Position numbers and translations under genes: made by a program. A DNA stretch of 20,000 nucleotides from an uncultured virus (IMG/VR IMGVR_UViG_3300020057_000040) (lineage: Duplodnaviria > Heunggongvirae > Uroviricota > Caudoviricetes), in the IMG/VR virus record IMGVR_UViG_3300020057_000040, one strand, 5' to 3'. Each line of letters begins with the position of its first letter. Within the stretch, counting starts at the first letter, position 1. Below the pieces are notes generated by a model. It was not told the DNA's origin and did no database searches. It was given only the letters and a program-made list of their open reading frames with translations. Below, piece after piece: positions 4,141 to 20,000 of this stretch.

Positions 4141-4215
4141 GGTGTTATTAGCTCAGTTGGTTAGAGTGCCTGATTGTGGTTCAGGAGGTCGTGGGGTCGT
4201 AGCCCACATAATACC
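4141..4215 (+). tRNA. tRNA-His (GTG)
   Basis: G-1, acceptor GTGTTAT/ATAATAC, discriminator C; anticodon arm CCTGA-TT-GTG-GT-TCAGG; atypical T-loop GTCGTAG. Confidence 0.88.
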
Positions 4216-4220
4216 CAAAA

Positions 4221-4313
4221 GGAGAAGTACCCAAGTTGGTTAAGGGGGCAGTTTGCTAAACTGTTAGGTCGTGTAAAAACGATGCGTGAGTTCGAGCCTC
4301 ACTTTCTCCGCCA
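4221..4313 (+). tRNA. tRNA-Ser (GCT)
   Basis: Acceptor GGAGAAG/TTTCTCC; anticodon arm GCAGT-TT-GCT-AA-ACTGT; long variable arm; TTCGAG T-loop; encoded G73-CCA. Confidence 0.93.
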
Positions 4314-4346
4314 AGAGTAAAAATGTTCTTTGAAAATGAATTTATT

Positions 4347-4429
4347 GGAGGGATGCGACCAACGGTGGTCAACTGCGTTTGAAGCGCAGGGCGGTCTTTA
4401 CGGACAGGGTTCGATTCCTAATCTCTCCG
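4347..4429 (+). tRNA. tRNA-Ser (TGA), non-canonical fold with 8-bp acceptor stem and short T-stem
   Basis: GGAGGGAT/ATCTCTCC pairing (8 bp); anticodon arm CTGCG-TT-TGA-AG-CGCAG; long variable arm; GGG-TTCGATT-CCT T-arm; G discriminator. Confidence 0.75.
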
Positions 4430-4443
4430 CAAAAATTAAATAA

Positions 4444-4527
4444 GGGAGTTTATCCAAGTGGTCAACGGGGACAGACTGTAAATCTGTTGGCTTTATGCCT
4501 TCGTAGGTTCAAATCCTACAACTCCCA
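4444..4527 (+). tRNA. tRNA-Tyr (GTA)
   Basis: Acceptor GGGAGTT/AACTCCC; anticodon arm ACAGA-CT-GTA-AA-TCTGT; T-arm GTAGG-TTCAAAT-CCTAC. Confidence 0.93.
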
Positions 4528-4540
4528 CAAAAATAAATAT

Positions 4541-4627
4541 GCCGATATGGTGAAATTGGACAAAGACACAACAGACTTAAAATCTGTCGCCTTCAATGGC
4601 ATCCCGATTCGAGTTCGGGTATCGGTA
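4541..4627 (+). tRNA. tRNA-Leu (TAA)
   Basis: Acceptor GCCGATA/TATCGGT; anticodon arm ACAGA-CT-TAA-AA-TCTGT; T-arm CCCGA-TTCGAGT-TCGGG; long D-loop. Confidence 0.88.
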
Positions 4628-4641
4628 CAAAAAATAAATAT

Positions 4642-4727
4642 GCGGGTATGGCGAAACTGGCTGATACGCACCTGTTTTAGAAACAGACGCTTTAAATGGC
4701 ATAAGGGTTCGACTCCCTTTACCCGCA
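4642..4727 (+). tRNA. tRNA-Leu (TAG)
   Basis: Acceptor GCGGGTA/TACCCGC; anticodon loop TT-TAG-AA closed by CTGT/ACAG; T-arm AAGGG-TTCGACT-CCCTT. Confidence 0.88.
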
Positions 4728-4809
4728 CAAAATAAAAATAGGTAACTATATATCTATTGGGACAAGGTTTAAAATTTTTAAGCCGTTTTTGTAGGAAATA
4801 ACAAACATT

Positions 4810-5310
4810 TTATTTTTTCACATACTTTTCTTTGTATTCTTGTTTAAGTTCTTCTTCGAGTTCAAACATCTTATCCCACTCAGGTAATTTTCTTAAATCA
4901 TCACGGCTTCCATTATCCCATAAAAAATGTTGGTTATACGTAATTAATTTTATATTTGGTTCATATAACTTGAATAATGGGTATCTGTTTTCTGCCTTTG
5001 GTAATACGTGTGAAAAATTACTAACACTAAATTTATAAATTGGTTCACCGTTAATAAATGATATGTGTTCCTTCATACTCTCCCACATGGATTGCATGAG
5101 TTGTAATTCTCCTGTCGGTACTCTTTTATAAGTTATAGGACTTTTCTTTAACTGTTTATAAACTTTCTTTGGCTTATCCTTATTTTTTTCTATTAATTTC
5201 TTTCTTTTTTCACCTGCATAATGATAACCGCATAACGGTGGATTTCGTTTTGATAATCGTTTTACTTTATCGTCTGTACACATACTGCATACACCTTCCA
5301 TTATTATCAT
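4810..5310 (-). CDS. Putative HNH-like (NinG/Ref-like) nuclease-fold protein
   Basis: N-terminal CxxC...CxxH; C-terminal FSHVLPK...NIKLI...QHFLWD resembles a degenerate H-N-H motif. Confidence 0.5.
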   Translation of the reverse strand: MIIMEGVCSMCTDDKVKRLSKRNPPLCGYHYAGEKRKKLIEKNKDKPKKVYKQLKKSPITYKRVPTGELQLMQSMWESMKEHISFINGEPIYKFSVSNFSHVLPKAENRYPLFKLYEPNIKLITYNQHFLWDNGSRDDLRKLPEWDKMFELEEELKQEYKEKYVKK

Positions 5311-6845: not shown

Positions 6846-7325
6846 TTATTTTTTTAGTTTATTATTAATAAAAACATATTCAGCGTGTGAAAGTGCTTGA
6901 TGGTATTTTTTAACCGACTTAATGAAACCAAAGAAAGCCATTTTGCTAACACCAACATATTCGTTACCATAATCCAAAGGTTCTCTTTCTGTTTTAGGAA
7001 ATATTTTTTCCGTGTTAGAATCCATAGAGTTTTTAAGCAACTCGTATTCGGCTGCATTTAAAGCAAAGTGATATTTATTCATAACAGATAATAAGTGTTT
7101 AAAACTATTACCTGAATCAAACTTCTTTTTGTAAATACCATCTTTAACTCTATTCCTAACAGGAAATATTTTTATTGATTCCATTGCTTCTGTAATTTTA
7201 TCAACTTTTTTTTCTACTGCTTCTGCCATCTTACGAAGCAACTCCAAAGTTTCAGGTGAACAATTGGGACTGACTGTTGCAACTGACTTTGAAGTTACCC
7301 GTATATGGCGGTGGTCATCAAACAT
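6846..7325 (-). CDS. Hypothetical protein with short internal repeat
   Basis: Start overlaps the NAMPT-like stop (TAATG); KYHFALNAAEY and KYHQALSHAEY repeat. Confidence 0.65.
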   Translation of the reverse strand: MFDDHRHIRVTSKSVATVSPNCSPETLELLRKMAEAVEKKVDKITEAMESIKIFPVRNRVKDGIYKKKFDSGNSFKHLLSVMNKYHFALNAAEYELLKNSMDSNTEKIFPKTEREPLDYGNEYVGVSKMAFFGFIKSVKKYHQALSHAEYVFINNKLKK

Positions 7326-8842
7326 TAATCTAATTTTTTTATTCGTTCACGTATTTGCTCTAAAGTAGTTTCATTAAAAAATTTACCATCTTCATAAATT
7401 ACTTTAAGCATACCTTTAGATTCTTCTTCGTGAGTACATTGAGTTTTTACCTCATAGTTTTCTGTAACCTGAATCAATCCTTTTAAAGATTTTTTAGTTC
7501 CGTCATCAGTTATAGGGTCTTTATAAATATCGTACTCTTTACCATCGGCTTCAAACCACGCTCCTTTAGCAGCGAAACCTAGTGAATCCCTTGTAACATA
7601 TCTGTATGTATAAGAACCAACACCTAAAACAATATTTGTTGAAGCAAATCCTTTAGCAGCTAACCTTTCATAAATTTTAATCTGTCTGTCTAAGGTTATA
7701 GAATCACCATACAGTACGCCAATGTGAGGGTCAAGAACTTTGTAACCTTGATTATTTATAGTACCACCGAATATATCCCAAAGTAATTCTATAACGCCTT
7801 TACAGGCAGGAATATCCTTATCAGCTATTGGACTGTCTTTCATAAATCTATTATCTAAAGTAAAATACTTTCCATCTTCTACAATAAATTCTTCATGTCC
7901 ACAAATAATATCAATAGGATTACCACTATCAGGACGGATAACTAATTTACCATCACGACCCATAATTTCAGATTTCAAGGCAATCAAATAAACGGTAATT
8001 AATTTCCACAAATCGAATGTGTCTGCTACGATAGATAAAATACCTTTATCAAATTCTTTTAACCAATCTGCTATCATTTGTTGTTCTCCTACTGTAAATA
8101 TCTTTGTGGTAGATACAGAGTGTTCAGAAGCGTTAACTGAATTAATACAAACTTTATCTTCGGGTTCACCGTAGAAATATCTTGCTGCAAGAATTACAAT
8201 TAATGTATCAGAACCCCTGTGGCTTGTTGCATGACCCATGCCACTTGAAATCATATCAAATGGCGACATACCCCTTGCGCTAAAATCATGGCACATATAA
8301 TCAATGAGCCAAGCATTTGTAGGGTCTGTTTTCATAACCCAATGTTTCGCATTTCTTCTGTATTGTAAAGCCGTTGTTGCTGATGTAGATGAAACCCAAG
8401 CTAAACTTGAAACAATTGTTTCCAAGTATAATGTTAACCACGCAAAACCACTTTTTGTATTTATAAAAGTCATGTGTGGTACGTTAGGGTTTGTTTCTAT
8501 TCCTTCGGGTAAACTTTTTGCTTTAATAGGCAAATAACCGACTTTATGTAATTCTTCAAAATGTGAAGCATTAAAATCCTGCATGAGATATAAACTCATG
8601 TCTTTACCGAATTTCATTGCTTGTTCTAATGGTAGTTTAAAGAAATTTTCCGTAAACTCATCATGTAGCCATCTCCAAGTCAATTGTTGACCGAATGATA
8701 AAATTTTAGTTATGCCTTTGTTAGCGTGTTTGATGCTTCTTGGTATCCAAGTACCGTATAGAAAATTAGTGTTTGGTGCTAACATTCTTTTGTGTCCTAC
8801 TTTATATCCATCGGAATAGTAGAGTGAGTTTGGTCTAAACAT
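7325..8842 (-). CDS. nadV: Nicotinamide phosphoribosyltransferase-family protein (NadV/NAMPT; possibly Namat-type)
   Basis: SDGYKVGH, HDFSARG, SEHSV, SIVADTFD, LVIRPDSG, YGDSIT, GVGSYTY and KDPITDDGTKKSLKG motifs of the NAMPT family. Confidence 0.92.
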   Translation of the reverse strand: MFRPNSLYYSDGYKVGHKRMLAPNTNFLYGTWIPRSIKHANKGITKILSFGQQLTWRWLHDEFTENFFKLPLEQAMKFGKDMSLYLMQDFNASHFEELHKVGYLPIKAKSLPEGIETNPNVPHMTFINTKSGFAWLTLYLETIVSSLAWVSSTSATTALQYRRNAKHWVMKTDPTNAWLIDYMCHDFSARGMSPFDMISSGMGHATSHRGSDTLIVILAARYFYGEPEDKVCINSVNASEHSVSTTKIFTVGEQQMIADWLKEFDKGILSIVADTFDLWKLITVYLIALKSEIMGRDGKLVIRPDSGNPIDIICGHEEFIVEDGKYFTLDNRFMKDSPIADKDIPACKGVIELLWDIFGGTINNQGYKVLDPHIGVLYGDSITLDRQIKIYERLAAKGFASTNIVLGVGSYTYRYVTRDSLGFAAKGAWFEADGKEYDIYKDPITDDGTKKSLKGLIQVTENYEVKTQCTHEEESKGMLKVIYEDGKFFNETTLEQIRERIKKLD

Positions 8843-8918: not shown

Positions 8919-9368
8919 TTAGTCTTGTTCTTTGTGTAATTTTTTTTGTGTGTATTCAATTGCTTTATCGAAATCAATGAAAAGAGGAATACTAAATCTT
9001 TCACACATGATGTGTATGTTCTCAGACCTGTAAAATTGTTTAGGACAACAAACTATCAACTTACCTGACTTGTAGTGCATACCAAATTCCAATAACGTAA
9101 TTGGTGATTTACTATCGGGTAATATGTTCATAAAAATATATTTTGATTTTTCCATTGCATCTATTTCCCAATTAACTTGTTCATCAGAATTAACGTTATC
9201 AAAATTTGTACGACGTGGATTGTAAATATCATAATCTAATCCGCTTAATTTGTAAATGGCTATTTGCTGCCAATCAACACTTTTTCCCATTTCAATTGTA
9301 CCTGCTAAGAAGATACCTTTTCTTTCTGTATTCAGAATGTAGTCGGGGGCTGTAAATACTTTTCTCAT
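8919..9368 (-). CDS. Nucleoside 2-deoxyribosyltransferase-like protein
   Basis: IFLAGTI...DWQ...YNPRR...QVNWE...SPITLLEFG pattern of the NDT-like family. Confidence 0.8.
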   Translation of the reverse strand: MRKVFTAPDYILNTERKGIFLAGTIEMGKSVDWQQIAIYKLSGLDYDIYNPRRTNFDNVNSDEQVNWEIDAMEKSKYIFMNILPDSKSPITLLEFGMHYKSGKLIVCCPKQFYRSENIHIMCERFSIPLFIDFDKAIEYTQKKLHKEQD

Positions 9369-9500: not shown

Positions 9501-10820
9501 TTAATCAAATAAACCTCCTTGATTTGTTTTTTGTATTTTTGCTTCTTTAAAATTTAAATTATCAAATTCAACGCTCGGCTTCCCTTTGGCATTGAGTTCT
9601 TTTACAATTATTGTTCTCTTAAATTTATATTTGTTACTCACGACAGGGCGATAACTACATTGTAATAATTTATAGCCACTGTTTAATATGCCGTTTTTTA
9701 TAGGACTAACCGAAATTGCAAATGGTTTGTAATAATCACTTGGAACAAAATTGTCCACTACAAGCATACCTTTCTCATCATAATATTGTTTGGGTATTTC
9801 TTTCAAAGGTTTTATTTTGTCTGTTTTGTGTTTTTGATGTTTATTTGTATAAACGTAAGTTTTAGCCCTTTTTTTCTTGTATGTTGGTGTTAAAAACCAA
9901 TTAAATTCAAACGGAATAACTGATATTTTTTTGTTTTGCCAAAGTTCTTTTGTCCATTTATATTGAACTGCTGCCCCATTTCCAAAGCAAATAACATCTT
10001 TTCCTGTTGATTGCATACATTTAAAAAAATGTTCAAATTTTGAAAACGGTGGGTTTGTAATGATAATATCAGCTTCATTATTTGCAATATTCATACATTC
10101 TTTGTCAGAATATGAGCCGTGAAAATTTGACTTAGTTCCAACAGGCGGGATTCTTAATATCTTTTTGCCATCATATTTCACAATAAATCCATCGTATTCA
10201 TTCCATTGATTACTGAAAAGAGAACCCGAAAAGTCCAATTTAGAGCCGTCAAAACGTGTTGAAATAATTTGTTTTAATTTTAATTTTTTAAAATTATTGT
10301 AAAAGTAAATCCAAAATGCCGATTGCCCTGCATCATCACAGTTCATATAAATTACTTTATTTTTCCAATAATCTGTTCCAAAATGCTCTACAATTGTTTC
10401 TACATCTTGATAGAAAGTATAACATTCATCGCTTTCAATAGAAACCATATCATCATCATCATTGTATCTTCCTTTGGTTCTTGTTTTGTTAAGTCGCTCT
10501 AAATCTGTTAAACTACCACTTTCATTAACTTGTGGCAAATCGTTTATCGAAATCAAAGGAAATATTTTTTGCCAAATTGCAGAACGTAATTCTTTACTGT
10601 CATAACTACATTCTTTGCCTTTGCCTACACTATTCCATTCGGGCAGGTTGTAAATAATTTTTAAAACTTCGTCTGCGTTGTCTTTAACTATTATTGGCAA
10701 AATCCATTCAACTTTTTTACCTTTTTGTCCTTTCCAAGCATAACCACCACGACCTCTGTGTAATTCAAGTTGTCCATCACAACTTTCTAAAATAACATAG
10801 TCAATTTTACTCTTTGCCAT
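9501..10820 (-). CDS. EcoRI-family adenine-specific DNA methyltransferase with N-terminal extension
   Basis: SDECYT...VIYMNCDD...SAFWIYFYNNF...LKQIIST and ADIIITNPPFS (motif IV). No cognate restriction enzyme is recognisable nearby. Confidence 0.8.
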   Translation of the reverse strand: MAKSKIDYVILESCDGQLELHRGRGGYAWKGQKGKKVEWILPIIVKDNADEVLKIIYNLPEWNSVGKGKECSYDSKELRSAIWQKIFPLISINDLPQVNESGSLTDLERLNKTRTKGRYNDDDDMVSIESDECYTFYQDVETIVEHFGTDYWKNKVIYMNCDDAGQSAFWIYFYNNFKKLKLKQIISTRFDGSKLDFSGSLFSNQWNEYDGFIVKYDGKKILRIPPVGTKSNFHGSYSDKECMNIANNEADIIITNPPFSKFEHFFKCMQSTGKDVICFGNGAAVQYKWTKELWQNKKISVIPFEFNWFLTPTYKKKRAKTYVYTNKHQKHKTDKIKPLKEIPKQYYDEKGMLVVDNFVPSDYYKPFAISVSPIKNGILNSGYKLLQCSYRPVVSNKYKFKRTIIVKELNAKGKPSVEFDNLNFKEAKIQKTNQGGLFD

Positions 10821-11203: not shown

Positions 11204-11278
11204 TTTATTTTATCTTTTTGAGCGTAAAACCCCTACGCCTTTAGGCTAGGGGATGTAAGCGAACCCAACGCTTTCATT

Positions 11279-12523
11279 TTAGTTTAAATTTAATTTTTGT
11301 GTATCAATAATCCAACTTTTTCTTGCACTAACTCGTTTCATTTTTTCAAACTTAGGAATTGGTTTTAGTTCAACTTTTTTGTTATCAATGTTCATTAGTA
11401 TGGCGTATCCTGTTGCCATTCTACCTTTGATAAAATATATTTTTCCTTCGTATTCAACCTTGTCAAATTTTCTGAATCCTTTGATTTTTCCAACAGGAAT
11501 AATTTGTTCAGAGCGCACTCCTTTTCTTAATTGAAAATCTCCATCTGAAATACACCTCTTTAAAATAATTTCATTTGTTTTAAAAGTAACAGGATTTCCA
11601 TTGCTACCAATTGCAACAGCATCAAAATAATGTTCTTTTGGCAAACCAATTAATTGTCGGTGTTCTTTTGTAATGTATCCAAAAGTTTCTTCTGCATTTG
11701 AAAGTCGTTTTAATAATTGAACACGAATTGAGTTCATTTGTGTAGCATGATTTAATTGACCTTTCTTTTTACCTTTTAATTTAAGAATAATTTTTCCTGA
11801 GTGTAAATCTTCATGGCAAGTATCGTGCAAGGTTATTAGATTTTTTTCATCATCAGAACCACCTTCACTTTTAAAAATAATATGATGAACTTCTAATTTT
11901 TTGTTTTCTGTTTTCTTTTTACAATGTTGACAAATATAATTATCACGGTGCAAAACATAGGATTTTGTATTTGCGAAACCATAGTTAATTCCTTTTTGAT
12001 ATAACGAATTATTTTTTAAAACATCAGGGTTTTTTAGTGCGTGTGTGTCAAAAGTTGCTGTTTCAATTTTTAATTTTGTAATAGGTAAAATTGATTTTAC
12101 AAATTTAATTTCCTTTAAATGAGAATTAATTTTACTTGTCATTGTTGGTGAAAATCTGTCAGTTCTGATACTGTTTTTTCTATTGTCGAATCTTGGTTTT
12201 CTGTATCTTGTATTTTTGTTTCTGCGAAACCTTCGATACTTTGAACGCTGTGTCATTTTTTCTGAAACATCATTTCTGATTGTAATTTCAGAAACATAAA
12301 CAACTTCATTTTTTTCATTCAAAACTGCACTTCCAACAACCGAACTTCCTGAATCAATATCATGTTCTAAATCTTGTTTGTAGTCGGTTGTTTCATAATT
12401 TAATTGAATTGTAAAAGGCGTAGTCATTACTACTTTCGCCTTGTTTTGTTTAAGCAAAATTCTTCCAATTGCCGAACAGCATGGCATCAGAGGATTTTTT
12501 TCTTTGCTTAAAACGTAAACCAT
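11279..12523 (-). CDS. iscB: RNA-guided endonuclease IscB
   Basis: N-terminal PLMP; RuvC-I DIDSGS; Arg-rich bridge helix RRFRRNKNTRYRKPRFDNR; RuvC-II ETATFD; HNH CQHC...HHIIFKSEGGSDDEKNLITL...H; RuvC-III HYFDAVAI. Confidence 0.95.
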   Translation of the reverse strand: MVYVLSKEKNPLMPCCSAIGRILLKQNKAKVVMTTPFTIQLNYETTDYKQDLEHDIDSGSSVVGSAVLNEKNEVVYVSEITIRNDVSEKMTQRSKYRRFRRNKNTRYRKPRFDNRKNSIRTDRFSPTMTSKINSHLKEIKFVKSILPITKLKIETATFDTHALKNPDVLKNNSLYQKGINYGFANTKSYVLHRDNYICQHCKKKTENKKLEVHHIIFKSEGGSDDEKNLITLHDTCHEDLHSGKIILKLKGKKKGQLNHATQMNSIRVQLLKRLSNAEETFGYITKEHRQLIGLPKEHYFDAVAIGSNGNPVTFKTNEIILKRCISDGDFQLRKGVRSEQIIPVGKIKGFRKFDKVEYEGKIYFIKGRMATGYAILMNIDNKKVELKPIPKFEKMKRVSARKSWIIDTQKLNLN

Positions 12524-13512: not shown

Positions 13513-13530
13513 TATTTATGTTTTTTTTAT

Positions 13531-13576
13531 CTATTTGAGCGTAAAACCCCTACGCTTTAGGGTAGTGGTGATTGAC
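13531..13576 (-). mobile_element. 46-bp collapsed IS200/IS605 (IscB-type) remnant: left end fused to right end
   Basis: Minus strand GTCAATCACCACTACCCTAAAG (left-end-like) + CGTAGGGGTTTTACGCTCAAATAG (near-identical to the right end at 11214-11237), again followed by ATAAA. Confidence 0.75.
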
Positions 13577-13583
13577 GCTATTT

Positions 13584-14549
13584 TTAATCATACAAATCAA
13601 TAAAATCTCCAAATGGAATTACTGTAACTAAGTTTCCGTAAGTACCGATTGTATTTTCTACCTTGCCTATTGATGGTGTTGTGTACACACGCTCAATACC
13701 GCTATCTTTTAAAGAGTTTACGTCTGATGAATTTTCATAATGGCTCACAATTAGATAAATTTTACCTGCATTACGTTTCTTTAATTCTTTTGCTAATCCA
13801 ATAAACGTTCCGCCCTTAGAACAAATATCATCTATAATGACTACATCACGTCCTTCCAAATCCTGTTTATCAACGGTATAAGCTATTATTTTTCCGTCAT
13901 TAAGATTACGGGCTTTATTACATAGGATAATATCGTCTTTGTAATTTAATTCACCTGCTAACTTAAATATTTTTTTGAAAGCACCTGAATCGGGAGAAAC
14001 AAATAACGGGCTACCTTTTAGAGTGGCTTTAAATTCATTTTCACTAACCCCTTTATCATTTTGTGCGTAACCATGAAGACCAACAATGTGAGTTAACGCT
14101 TCATAAACAAACGCTTTGTTACTTATTACATGAATGTTATGTTCTAATAGAGTAGGCGTTATATCCGAATGAGCATCGAGAACAAAAATTCTATGGAACT
14201 CACATGATTTAAGCATATCAGTCACTACCTTCAATGAGAATGGTTCACCATCTACCATAACCCTGTCCTGACGGGCATAAGGCATATATGGCATGAATAA
14301 GTCAATCTTTTCGTAACCCATGCGTTTTAGAGCATCATTAGTTAATAGGATACTAATTAAATCATCCGAGCTATTAGCGTGAGCGTAAATAGTTACTGCG
14401 GTTGTTTCAATTTTAGGTTCGCTGTCTTTAATCTTAACATGGACTTCCCCACCTAAGAAATTAAATTGCTCTGAGGTTAATGCAGATTCAATTGCTTCTC
14501 CATCTTTATTGGTTATTGGAGTGAACCCGTTTATAAATATTGTTTCCAT
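13584..14549 (-). CDS. prs: Ribose-phosphate pyrophosphokinase (PRPP synthetase)-family protein, possibly Adps-type
   Basis: FLGGEVHVKI, MPYMPYARQDRVM..GEPFSLKV, LDAHS, VSPDSGAFKK and VVIIDDICSKGGTF (PRTase motif). Confidence 0.9.
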   Translation of the reverse strand: METIFINGFTPITNKDGEAIESALTSEQFNFLGGEVHVKIKDSEPKIETTAVTIYAHANSSDDLISILLTNDALKRMGYEKIDLFMPYMPYARQDRVMVDGEPFSLKVVTDMLKSCEFHRIFVLDAHSDITPTLLEHNIHVISNKAFVYEALTHIVGLHGYAQNDKGVSENEFKATLKGSPLFVSPDSGAFKKIFKLAGELNYKDDIILCNKARNLNDGKIIAYTVDKQDLEGRDVVIIDDICSKGGTFIGLAKELKKRNAGKIYLIVSHYENSSDVNSLKDSGIERVYTTPSIGKVENTIGTYGNLVTVIPFGDFIDLYD

Positions 14550-16304: not shown

Positions 16305-17372
16305 TTACTCTTTTAATTTAATTTTATTAAAATCCAAATAACGTTCCTGTTCTTTTTTCGGTAATGTTTTTATTGCAGAACTTGAAATATGATTGTAGTT
16401 ACCATCACAGGTAATAAATACAATGGGTATATTACAACCTAAATCTTTTATGTATTGACACATGGTTAATTCATAATCTAAATCTTTAGCGTTCCTTAAA
16501 CCACGAACCAATGTTAGGTTGTCGTAATCCAATCCTTTTATGTAATCAGTAATAAGACCGTGATACATTTCTTGTTGATAATGATTTAAGCACATTGGTA
16601 ACATAGTAAAATCACCATTATTTTTACCCGCATTGATACCACGAGCAAGAATTACTTTATCAAAAATTTGTTCGGCTTTGTCCAATATATTTTTATGTCC
16701 AATGTGAAATGGATTAAAGCTACCTGCAAACACCGCTATCTTTGGTTTTAATGTTTTGAAGTATTCAATTAAATAACAGATGCCTGTGTACTTAGATGTG
16801 TTCCTTAAACCTTCTGCAAGTGTTTCTAATACTTCTAATCTTTTTGTACGGTATGTGTTCCAATCAACGAATTGATACTCTTTAAAAATTTGTTTGTCGT
16901 ATTCTATTATTTCCGAAAATGATTTTTCAAAAATATGCAGGTCTGCATTAATTAGAGATATTGAAAGGCAATAATACGTTTTATTTCGTGTATTGTTTGG
17001 TTTATGTGTTTTTGTATCCATAATCAAATCGTAAATTACCATTCCTTCTGCTGTTTCTCCCTTCCAATCGTTCTTAAATTGTTCGGCAGATTTTTCTTCA
17101 TTATTATTTGCCTTCGGGTCATAAACGTAATCGTGATAAACGGTAGCGATAATTATTTCATCATCCGTTTGTTCCATATCAACCAAATACATTACCATAT
17201 CCTCGATGTGTTTCCAAGTATGATAATGACGATGCGGTTGAGAATAAGCAGCTTCAAATTTAGTTATATCAAAACCCATTTTATGATTTAAAAACGATTG
17301 GCGTATAATCATATAAACTACTTGCTCTTTTGGAGTGTACGTTAATAAATGATTTATTTCTTCTTTTGTCAT
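16305..17372 (-). CDS. Fusion of an HD-like metal-dependent phosphohydrolase and a CoaD/PPAT-like nucleotidyltransferase
   Basis: N-half YSQPHRHYHTWKHI...YHDYVYDPKANNNEEKSA...ADL; C-half AVFAGSFNPFHIGH (HIGH), RGLRNAKDLDYE, ISSSAIK. Confidence 0.82.
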   Translation of the reverse strand: MTKEEINHLLTYTPKEQVVYMIIRQSFLNHKMGFDITKFEAAYSQPHRHYHTWKHIEDMVMYLVDMEQTDDEIIIATVYHDYVYDPKANNNEEKSAEQFKNDWKGETAEGMVIYDLIMDTKTHKPNNTRNKTYYCLSISLINADLHIFEKSFSEIIEYDKQIFKEYQFVDWNTYRTKRLEVLETLAEGLRNTSKYTGICYLIEYFKTLKPKIAVFAGSFNPFHIGHKNILDKAEQIFDKVILARGINAGKNNGDFTMLPMCLNHYQQEMYHGLITDYIKGLDYDNLTLVRGLRNAKDLDYELTMCQYIKDLGCNIPIVFITCDGNYNHISSSAIKTLPKKEQERYLDFNKIKLKE

Positions 17373-18681: not shown

Positions 18682-19053
18682 CTAATGGGTTACCCCTTTT
18701 ATATTAAGATGTTCTTCCACCGCCTGACAAGTAATGTTGAAGAAGAAGCTGGGTGTTACCCCCTTCATATTAAGATGTTCTTCCACCATATCCTTTATAA
18801 AGCCTTGTATTTGCTTGTAGTTCATGCCAAATTGCGATTCAAAAACTGACCAAATATTATGATAATCGCACCATAAATTCGATTTTTCTAATTCTAAAAA
18901 ACACTTTTTATCTTTAATAAAAAATACTGAATCAGGACGTTCTTTTTTAAATGTTTCTGTGTCAATTGTAAGCCCGTTAATCATTTCCAAAAAAACTTCT
19001 TCTTTTGTTTTTTTAGGTATTAGATTTTCAGATTTGTTTTCTTCGTTGCTCAT
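18682..19053 (-). CDS. Array-associated small protein, paralog A
   Basis: Near-identical to the two upstream paralogs; C-terminus encoded by repeat-spacer-repeat (VEEHLNMKGVTP-SFFFNITCQA-VEEHLNIKGVTH). Confidence 0.8.
   Translation of the reverse strand: MSNEENKSENLIPKKTKEEVFLEMINGLTIDTETFKKERPDSVFFIKDKKCFLELEKSNLWCDYHNIWSVFESQFGMNYKQIQGFIKDMVEEHLNMKGVTPSFFFNITCQAVEEHLNIKGVTH
18686..18787 (-). CRISPR. CRISPR-like mini-array A (2 repeats, one 30-nt spacer)
   Basis: Repeats at 18686-18721 (degenerate) and 18752-18787; spacer 18722-18751. Confidence 0.65.
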
Positions 19054-19089
19054 TTTTTTTATATTTTTTAAATTCTTGTTATTTTCTAA

Positions 19090-19259
19090 TGTGTTACCCC
19101 ATTCATATTAAGGTGTTATTCCAACACTTTATGTAACAGGGTAGCGTTGCTTATGCGGTGTTACTCCCTTCATATTAAGATGTTCTTCCACTAGTCACAG
19201 AAAACAGAAGCGGAAATTGAAGTGGTGTTACCCCATTCATATTAAGATGTTCTTCCACC
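19090..19259 (-). CRISPR. CRISPR-like mini-array B (3 repeats, two 31-nt spacers)
   Basis: Repeats at 19090-19125 (degenerate), 19157-19192 and 19224-19259; unique spacers 19126-19156 and 19193-19223. Confidence 0.7.
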
Positions 19260-19579
19260 ATATCCTTTATAAAGTCTTGTATTTGCTTGTAGTTCATGTC
19301 AAATTGCGATTCAAAAACTGACCAAATATTATCATAATCGCACAATAAATCCGATTTTTTTAATTCTAAAAAACACTTTTTATCTTTAATAAAAAACTTA
19401 GAATTAGGATGACTTTTCTTAAATGTTTCCGTGTCAATTGTAAGCCCATTAATCATTTCCAAAAAAACTTCTTCTTTTGTTTTTTTAGGTATTATATTTT
19501 CAGCTTCAATTAATTTTCTTAGTTCGCTAACTTCATTTTCTAATTCGGTTAATCTTTTTTTGTTTTCTTCGCTGCTCAT
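19175..19579 (-). CDS. Array-associated small protein, paralog B (extra N-terminal coiled-coil)
   Basis: Same core as paralog A plus KKRLTELENEVSELRKLIEA; ends inside the second repeat (SGRTS*). Confidence 0.8.
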   Translation of the reverse strand: MSSEENKKRLTELENEVSELRKLIEAENIIPKKTKEEVFLEMINGLTIDTETFKKSHPNSKFFIKDKKCFLELKKSDLLCDYDNIWSVFESQFDMNYKQIQDFIKDMVEEHLNMNGVTPLQFPLLFSVTSGRTS

Positions 19580-19615
19580 TTTTTTTATATTTTTTAAATT
19601 CTTGTTATTTTCTAA

Positions 19616-19850
19616 TGTGTTACCCCTTTTATATTAAGATGTTCTTCCACCCCGTTAGTTTTACTTTCGGCAATGTAATCGGGTGTTACCCCCTTCATAT
19701 TAAGATGTTCTTTCACCATATTTTACTTTCAAAAGTAGATGTAGAACGGGTCTTACCCCCTTCATGTTAAGATGTTCTTCCACCAAGGAGGCATTTAAAG
19801 AATAATAAATTCGGGGTGTTACCCCCTTCATATTAAGATGTTCTTCCACC
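19616..19850 (-). CRISPR. CRISPR-like mini-array C (4 repeats, spacers 30/31/30 nt)
   Basis: Repeats at 19616-19651 (degenerate), 19682-19717, 19749-19784 and 19815-19850; consensus (minus strand) GGTGGAAGAACATCTTAATATGAAGGGGGTAACACC. Confidence 0.75.
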
Positions 19851-20000
19851 ATATCCTTTATAAAGTCTTGTATTTGCTTGTAGTTCATGTCAAATTGCGA
19901 TTCAAAAACTGACCAAATATTATCGTAATCGCACCATAAATCCGATTTTTCTAATTCTAAAAAACACTTTTTATCTTTAATAAAAAACTTAGAATTAGGA
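19700..20000 (-). CDS. Array-associated small protein, paralog C (5' end outside window)
   Basis: Frame is open to the window edge (PNSKFFIKDKKCFLELEKSDLWCDYDNIWSVFESQFDMNYKQ...); the ORF-track start at 19888 is an internal Met. Confidence 0.8.
   Translation of the reverse strand, partial: PNSKFFIKDKKCFLELEKSDLWCDYDNIWSVFESQFDMNYKQIQDFIKDMVEEHLNMKGVTPRIYYSLNASLVEEHLNMKGVRPVLHLLLKVKYGERTS

Follow-up and report, generated by a model that had tools for sequence, protein, structure and literature searches.

Is a repeat array that forms the ends of three viral genes kept for the peptides it encodes or for the DNA it takes up? In the 20,000-nucleotide stretch of viral DNA analysed here (the window), nine 36-nt repeats were found on the minus strand, arranged in three arrays of four, three and two copies (A, B and C) with 0–5 mismatches to the copy at 18752–18787. 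At an array pitch of 66–67 nt, these nine near-identical 36-mers lie far above chance expectation. Three paralogous ORFs each have the start of one array within their 3′ end; the ORFs are identical at 139–147 of the last 150 nt before the repeat, and the six spacers are mutually unrelated. The first repeat is in frame and encodes VEEHLNM[K/N]GVTP; it begins one base ahead of the Val codon, and the Pro codon is completed by the first base of the spacer. As the overall best explanation we propose, with moderate confidence, a CRISPR-type mini-array that is built into the gene end and written by a host integrase.

All array features lie on the minus strand. ORF A (19700–20000, its 5′ end outside the window; the 138-aa protein P0003 has an identical end) is a family paralog ending in GVTP-RIYYSLNASL-VEEHLNMKGVRP-VLHLLLKVKY-GERTS-stop. 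Its last four codons before the repeat (19851–19862) would form the coding leader-side junction, a role suggested by a family-wide synonymous bias, and are followed by the in-frame repeat A1 (19815–19850, VEEHLNMKGVTP), the putative insertion site, and by the in-frame 30-nt spacer A1 (19785–19814, RIYYSLNASL), presumably the newest. Downstream lie the in-frame repeat A2 (19749–19784), the frame-shifting 31-nt spacer A2 (19718–19748), repeat A3 (19682–19717), which is out of register and read as ERTS-stop, the 30-nt spacer A3 beyond the stop (19652–19681) and the terminal repeat A4 (19616–19651) with three mismatches. ORF B (19175–19579, 134 aa), also a family paralog, ends in GVTP-LQFPLLFSVT-SGRTS-stop and comprises the in-frame repeat B1 (19224–19259, VEEHLNMNGVTP), the frame-shifting 31-nt spacer B1 (19193–19223) and repeat B2 (19157–19192), read as GRTS-stop; the 31-nt spacer B2 (19126–19156) lies beyond the stop and is followed by the terminal repeat B3 (19090–19125) with five mismatches and a stop in its own register. 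ORF C (18682–19053, 123 aa) contains the in-frame repeat C1 (18752–18787), the in-frame 30-nt spacer C1 (18722–18751, SFFFNITCQA) and the terminal repeat C2 (18686–18721), in frame with GVTH and then TAG, so that its end reads GVTP-SFFFNITCQA-VEEHLNIKGVTH-stop.

An earlier note on this DNA had described the arrays with their in-frame first repeats, and parsing of the window found all its translations correct. The rule that 30-nt spacers keep the frame and 31-nt spacers shift it to (G/E)RTS-stop was confirmed in ORFs A, B and C, as was the count of four spacers translated within ORFs and two past the stop, where "translated" rests on ORF structure and on the family statistics given below. The note had also let the terminal repeats of arrays A and C read GVTH-TAG; this stands in frame for array C, but in A4 it exists only in the repeat's own register because ORF A has already ended at 19700.

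The window resembles part of a large phage: it is AT-rich and carries five tRNAs, an integrase, NAD-salvage genes and T4-like genes. The tRNAs (His, Ser, Tyr, Leu and Leu) are located at 4142–4728 on the plus strand. NAMPT-like, PRPP-synthetase-like and cytidylyltransferase-like genes (7325–8842, 13584–14549 and 16305–17372, all on the minus strand) represent the NAD-salvage set, and NAD salvage is a counter to NAD-depleting defences. A tyrosine integrase fragment (2–418), an adenylosuccinate synthetase-like gene (327–1625), an EcoRI-type adenine methylase (9501–10820) and a nucleoside deoxyribosyltransferase-like gene (8919–9368) were also found. An IscB-like protein with RRXRR and HNH is encoded at 11279–12523 on the minus strand and is flanked by a 38-nt direct repeat (11204–11241 and 13521–13558, 2.3 kb apart), possibly the ends of a mobile element. 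The largest ORF of the window has 505 aa, none is of cas13b size, and the arrays sit at the window edge. An Rfam search of the window gave no match.

The proteins of ORFs A, B and C belong to a family of 765 clusters at 50 % identity (E ≤ 0.001). For sampling its DNA, a search pattern was used that reaches no further than the final base of the first repeat and is thus blind to the spacers; 60 of 150 family proteins conform to it, these being the best 150 of the 765 clusters. It yielded 26 viral and at least 121 metagenome stretches, and flanks were taken for 80 of the latter; five matches came from a genome collection, and none of these was seen among the parsed arrays. With a core profile, 171 ORF ends were located, lying in 126 of the 158 sequences. 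Once two ends that scored less than 30 bits had been discarded and those with the same first spacer combined, 120 distinct ends were left. Arrays are present at 101 of the 120, with two to seven repeats and 208 distinct spacers. Spacer length is 30 nt in 153, 29 nt in 37 and 31 nt in 10 of the 208, giving a unit of 65–67 nt; five spacers outside 28–32 nt did not enter the codon tests. Of the 101 ORFs, 57 continue in frame through the first spacer, 21 end at a stop within it and 23 have their frame shifted by it.

Searches of Pfam and PHROGs placed the three ORFs in no family beyond weak chance matches; among 127 alignment members at most two share one Pfam family and one matches a PHROG. No relative was found by sequence search of the PDB or in an annotated phage collection, the ESM Atlas gave no usable match, and BFVD gave one at E ≤ 0.001, to uncharacterised phage proteins. 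A first search of viral contigs for related loci found none, and the exact window repeat was absent from viral contigs. AlphaFold2 predicts for the ORF C protein a confident domain of about 90 residues (mean pLDDT 83) with a helix, four strands, two helices and a strand at 100–104; in this model repeat C1 codes for the end of helix 79–94 and the start of strand 100–104, and the second repeat is of low confidence. A second model, of a six-repeat member, has the same core; there the first repeat is not followed by a strand, and the tails are for the most part of low confidence. The best hit of a fold search reached Z 3.9 and none reached 5, which is not proof of a new fold. Among 158 proteins the repeat peptides are spaced by 22 aa in 76 of 92 distances. 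A word search, weak evidence on this point, returned no longer fused forms, yet the family list has multi-domain members, P0010 and P0011; the latter (760 aa) carries 12 in-frame repeat peptides among several family domains. Up to ten paralogs with mostly different tails occur per locus, and in L042 ten tandem paralogs lie within 12 kb.

Whether the spacer is read as protein can be judged from its stop codons, a check that the earlier note had proposed for the first spacers of homologs. Stops are depleted overall, as 21 of 98 first spacers contain one in frame against 35–42 in the other five frames (p = 0.0007). However, the deficit is confined to codons 1–3 of the spacer (7/609 vs 84/1218 off-frame, p = 5e-9; first spacers 2/294 vs 38/588, later spacers 5/315 vs 46/630), and codons 4–9 are at background (63/1218 vs 133/2233, p = 0.36). 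When each of 39 relatedness groups is represented by a single array, the median p for codons 1–3 is 0.001 and the worst 0.07; in 905 spacers of host type II-C arrays, stops are not depleted at these offsets (160/2715 vs 289/5430). Because the depletion ends after three codons, it is best read as a protein that continues into the spacer, where roughly three residues after GVTP are required, the tail beyond them not being curated. These residues might complete the last strand (100–104 in the first model, absent from the second); alternatively, they might avoid a Pro-stop end, and such ends can stall ribosomes. Of the two options in the earlier note, tails as tolerated by-products of an RNA array thus fit better, with the reservation that the first three codons are strongly depleted of stops.

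Could the tails nevertheless be the product for which the system exists? An integrase-driven peptide diversifier would let captured DNA write random 10-residue tails onto a multi-copy scaffold, from which rare binders of host or defence targets would be selected. This would account for a protein that extends into the spacer and is under selection in that part, for the many paralogs with different tails and for tails that are replaced more quickly than the body changes: spacer 1 differs in 14 of 15 near-identical pairs, counted after identical records had been collapsed, and P0029/P0162/P0163 are a further instance. It could also draw on the 12 in-frame repeats of P0011, on the fast amino-acid change of the ORF body (dN/dS ~0.7) and on the 64 translated internal repeats, none of which has a stop where 2.8 were simulated (P = 0.04), which weakly suggests that longer tails are selected. 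However, stops at codons 4–9 follow the background and the amino-acid classes of first spacers do not differ between frames; in later spacers acidic residues do (p = 0.001, uncorrected, one among several tests). Moreover, spacers of 30 nt, which keep the frame, make up a smaller share than they do in host arrays (153/205, 75 %, vs 761/928, 82 %, p = 0.02), 44 of the 101 ORFs are truncated or frame-shifted at spacer 1, and the extra repeat-peptide units are of low confidence in both structural models. Together with the captured phage DNA described below, this speaks against the earlier note's other option, cassettes that diversify the C-terminus. We regard the diversifier as unlikely, and as similarly doubtful its extended form, a host integrase turned protein diversifier whose transcript may also give guides, so that constraints from protein, integrase and RNA would act at once.

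The repeat itself is constrained at the level of DNA. With one sequence from each of 47 groups, whose proteins are only ~30–50 % identical, particular codons are fixed at repeat positions: Val is GTR in 33 of 33 (background 0.31), Phe TTC in 26 of 30 (0.14), Lys AAG in 20 of 22 (0.17) and Thr ACA in 43 of 43 (0.48). The base before the repeat is G in 18 of 19 (background 0.18), and the four codons ahead of it show a weaker synonymous bias. Against a blanket constraint, synonymous change in close pairs is 0.18 both in the repeat and in the ORF body. In type II-A systems about 10 bp are required on either side of the leader-repeat junction, according to the available text of PMC4330368. Internal repeats are identical to the first in 80 of 116 cases, and terminal repeats often keep 18–27 of their 5′ bases, although the parser favours such stubs. 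A conserved hairpin or covariation was not detected: RNAalifold gave 0 pairs on both strands, and named structures were no better than shuffles.

The direction of growth can be read from the arrays. In 31 of them the first repeat has 0.5 mismatches to the internal consensus and the last 4.5. The pairs L028/L078 and L077/L126 have all downstream spacers in common, their differences being confined to the ORF side; in L022 a new spacer precedes the one that stands first in L034. Furthermore, 57 later spacers that are untranslated in their own array are still poor in stops at codons 1–3 (3/171 vs 28/342, p = 0.003) and therefore once occupied the first place. These comparisons demonstrate that the arrays grow from the ORF side, older spacers moving downstream; the ORF therefore acts as the leader. 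The earlier note's statement that there is no separate leader and that the ORF holds its position is borne out by this ORF-side entry and by the decayed terminal repeat. In contigs from related runs, breaks fall at the borders of repeats, beyond which other spacers follow.

Protospacer matches, which the earlier note had named as a sign of RNA guides, were found for six of the 208 spacers and for 0/208 in each of ten shuffled sets; 202 spacers have no match in the fetched DNA (1.93 Mb), and none was found for the six of the window. Five match non-array DNA with 0, 0, 1, 1 and 3 mismatches; the match of the sixth lies on its own contig and has a 2-nt insertion. The targets are phage-type genes on contigs that bear the same gene family at 75–89 % nucleotide identity, so they belong to kin or to the same phage, which are indistinguishable here. 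Three protospacers are in sense orientation, two are antisense and one lies outside an ORF; their six flanks show no clear PAM. At the level of sequence, these matches establish the capture of phage DNA as spacers. A spacer of L042 matches another repeated gene family in L068 and L082 with 3–5 mismatches. ORF-less copies of the repeat exist too: a solitary one with ~26 upstream bases in L006 (~4970–5035; G009 near 42568), 7.4 kb from a family gene, and a pair 60 nt apart in L194 (G002 16575–16670); these are possibly moved junctions or single repeat units.

The phage junctions might be decoys that soak up prespacer complexes of the host Cas1-Cas2, so that spacers of phage origin would end up in the phage instead of the host array; the spacers would then be footprints with no role as guides. 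A constraint at fixed DNA positions and at the junction in the absence of an RNA hairpin would suit such a role, as would spacers from both strands of phage DNA and one from its own contig, the multi-copy tandem units and the solitary repeat with 26 upstream bases in G009. Integration alone, however, needs neither the intact internal repeats nor the 5′ bases kept in terminal ones (the latter with the parser's preference for stubs in mind), and we consider decoys distinctly improbable.

Which host could supply the writing enzyme? In the viral records, all of them fragments of 5–83 % completeness, no gene passed the cut-off for cas1 (0/19), cas2 (0/17) or cas9 (0/5), and reverse transcriptase was not found in five incomplete ones (0/5). 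No neighbouring gene is conserved among 86 loci, many of which are short. The motif TAnnTTTG stands upstream of 29 of 80 ORFs against 7.1 ± 2.6 after shuffling and is known as a Bacteroidota promoter motif (PMC6847099); an antisense promoter downstream of the arrays is not clear (24 vs 17 ± 4). Among the NAMPT matches, a cyanophage and Tenacibaculum phages are level. A-rich starts and the promoter motif, and loosely the NAMPT matches, suggest a Bacteroidota host. A model of the repeat gave no array-like match in 151 Bacteroidota genomes, only partial ones at chance level.

The first cas2 loci sampled had mostly class 1 arrays, and 40 further regions gave arrays of type II-C. The latter have spacers of 30, 29 and 31 nt in 761, 109 and 35 of 928 cases and so share the ruler of the family. 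Their repeats end in an ACAAC-type motif away from cas2, as family repeats end in ACACC/ACAAC away from the ORF; the shared motif GTTGT is placed leader-distal in the available text of PMC8092290. On the family matrix II-C consensus repeats (37 of 40 cas2 regions) are mostly no better than their own shuffles and all score ≤−12, and type I and III repeats score ≤−27. Two repeats of Cas13b loci (36 nt, with 30-nt spacers) reach +1.6, where the shuffle maximum for L217 is −15.7; they have the length, the ends and the central TTCAAA motif of the family repeat, and the one of L216 is identical to the family consensus at 22 of 36 positions, the best identity among the repeats compared. The guide strand is unreadable from this likeness because the repeat is nearly palindromic. 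In the Cas13b-locus array of L216 (1153–1475) the last repeat retains its 5′ 25 bases and lacks the remainder, a pattern like that of many terminal repeats of the family.

In the CRISPR-type array proposed here, the last 12 codons of the gene serve also as the first repeat, and the codons ahead of them would serve as the leader junction. A host Cas1-Cas2 of the Bacteroidota II-C type, very probably the writer, would act in trans: from the DNA in the infected cell it would take pieces of 29–31 nt, insert them at the repeat on the ORF side and copy that repeat. Each insertion would rewrite the C-terminus of the protein and push older spacers downstream; the phage would survive it provided that no stop falls in the first three codons gained, and the tail past three residues would be a tolerated by-product. 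The transcript from the gene's promoter would then yield guide RNAs for a host effector, Cas13b-like by the shape of the repeat, against related co-infecting phages. To such use against kin phages we give about an even chance, and it is the likeliest reason why the site is kept.

Off-target spacer integration is known from the concept of neo-arrays, and a neutral accident of this kind, a gene end that resembles a repeat and takes up spacers without benefit, would fit the neutral content of the tails, the many unmatched spacers and the lack of cas genes and conserved neighbours. It is hardly reconcilable with rare codons fixed at five repeat positions in 47 groups, although insertions risk truncating the gene, or with arrays at 101 of 120 ends, and is very improbable. 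Least credible of all is cassette shuffling by ordinary recombination between repeats with no capture by CRISPR enzymes, since for all the mixed proteins (P0159, P0002 and P0006, each with the body of one paralog and the tail of another) and the spacers shared between paralogs within L042 and within L075, it cannot make 208 distinct ruler-length spacers or account for ORF-side polarity and for exact 30-nt matches to phage genes outside arrays. Recombination as the source of new spacers is largely refuted by the protospacer matches; between paralogs it may swap tails, and chimeric assembly could mimic the mixed proteins.

On balance the evidence points to a site of DNA capture built into a gene rather than to a library of designed peptides. 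It places a CRISPR-type leader and repeat inside coding sequence across a large phage family, where selection on the protein has left a measurable scar on captured spacers; the scar in the stop codons dates the order of spacers and reveals the growing end without experiments. No description of a protein-coding CRISPR repeat was found in the literature searched, mostly outside subscription journals and without supplements. If the host Cas1-Cas2 writes the array, large phages of lytic type can acquire spacers directly, a point left open in the mini-array literature as far as the available text of PMC7099407 goes. The family would also be a candidate model for how the end of a gene can give rise to arrays, and a naturally occurring scheme for recording DNA in frame. 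Should the tails be functional, they would represent a new way of diversifying proteins, a diversity-generating system driven by Cas1-Cas2.

Among known systems, diversity-generating retroelements likewise produce a variable C-terminal segment on a phage protein. They work with a pair of template and variable repeats and adenine-specific change, whereas here whole unrelated 29–31-mers stand between constant repeats and stops are not avoided past codon 3. TIGR-Tas arrays have 36-nt units with two short spacers each, in contrast to the family unit of 65–67 nt with one spacer of 29–31 nt. ART arrays, with units of ~200 nt and a reverse transcriptase in the source available, are a different thing. 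Bacteroidota type II-C arrays are alike in the spacer ruler (30 > 29 > 31) and the leader-distal ACAAC-type end and unlike in the body of the repeat. Type VI-B (Cas13b) arrays, from the available text of PMC8092290, agree in the 36-nt repeat, the 30-nt spacer, the G..C ends, the leader-distal ACAAC/GTTGT and the lack of their own adaptation genes, and are filled in trans by Cas1-Cas2 of type II-C; here, however, the array is embedded in an ORF, and there is no conserved stem-loop and, in the window, no ORF of cas13b size. The Cas-less arrays of huge phages (PMC7162821) are similarly compact and occur in large phages without acquisition genes, and the available text makes no mention of a coding repeat. 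Closest are the mini-arrays of viruses, which in the parts of PMC11656645 and PMC7099407 at hand are likewise short phage arrays with spacers against related phages, no cas genes having been found. Their repeats match the host's exactly, whereas for the family repeat no identical host repeat was found (best 22/36), and their leaders are unlike the host's and are likely to rule out adaptation, whereas here there are signs of direct, polar acquisition. In addition, the leader and first repeat are protein-coding here, the arrays hold one to six spacers and the repeat varies with the protein. Judged by sequence, the family works like a virus CRISPR mini-array and is a candidate member of that kind, its leader and repeat being, unusually, part of a gene.
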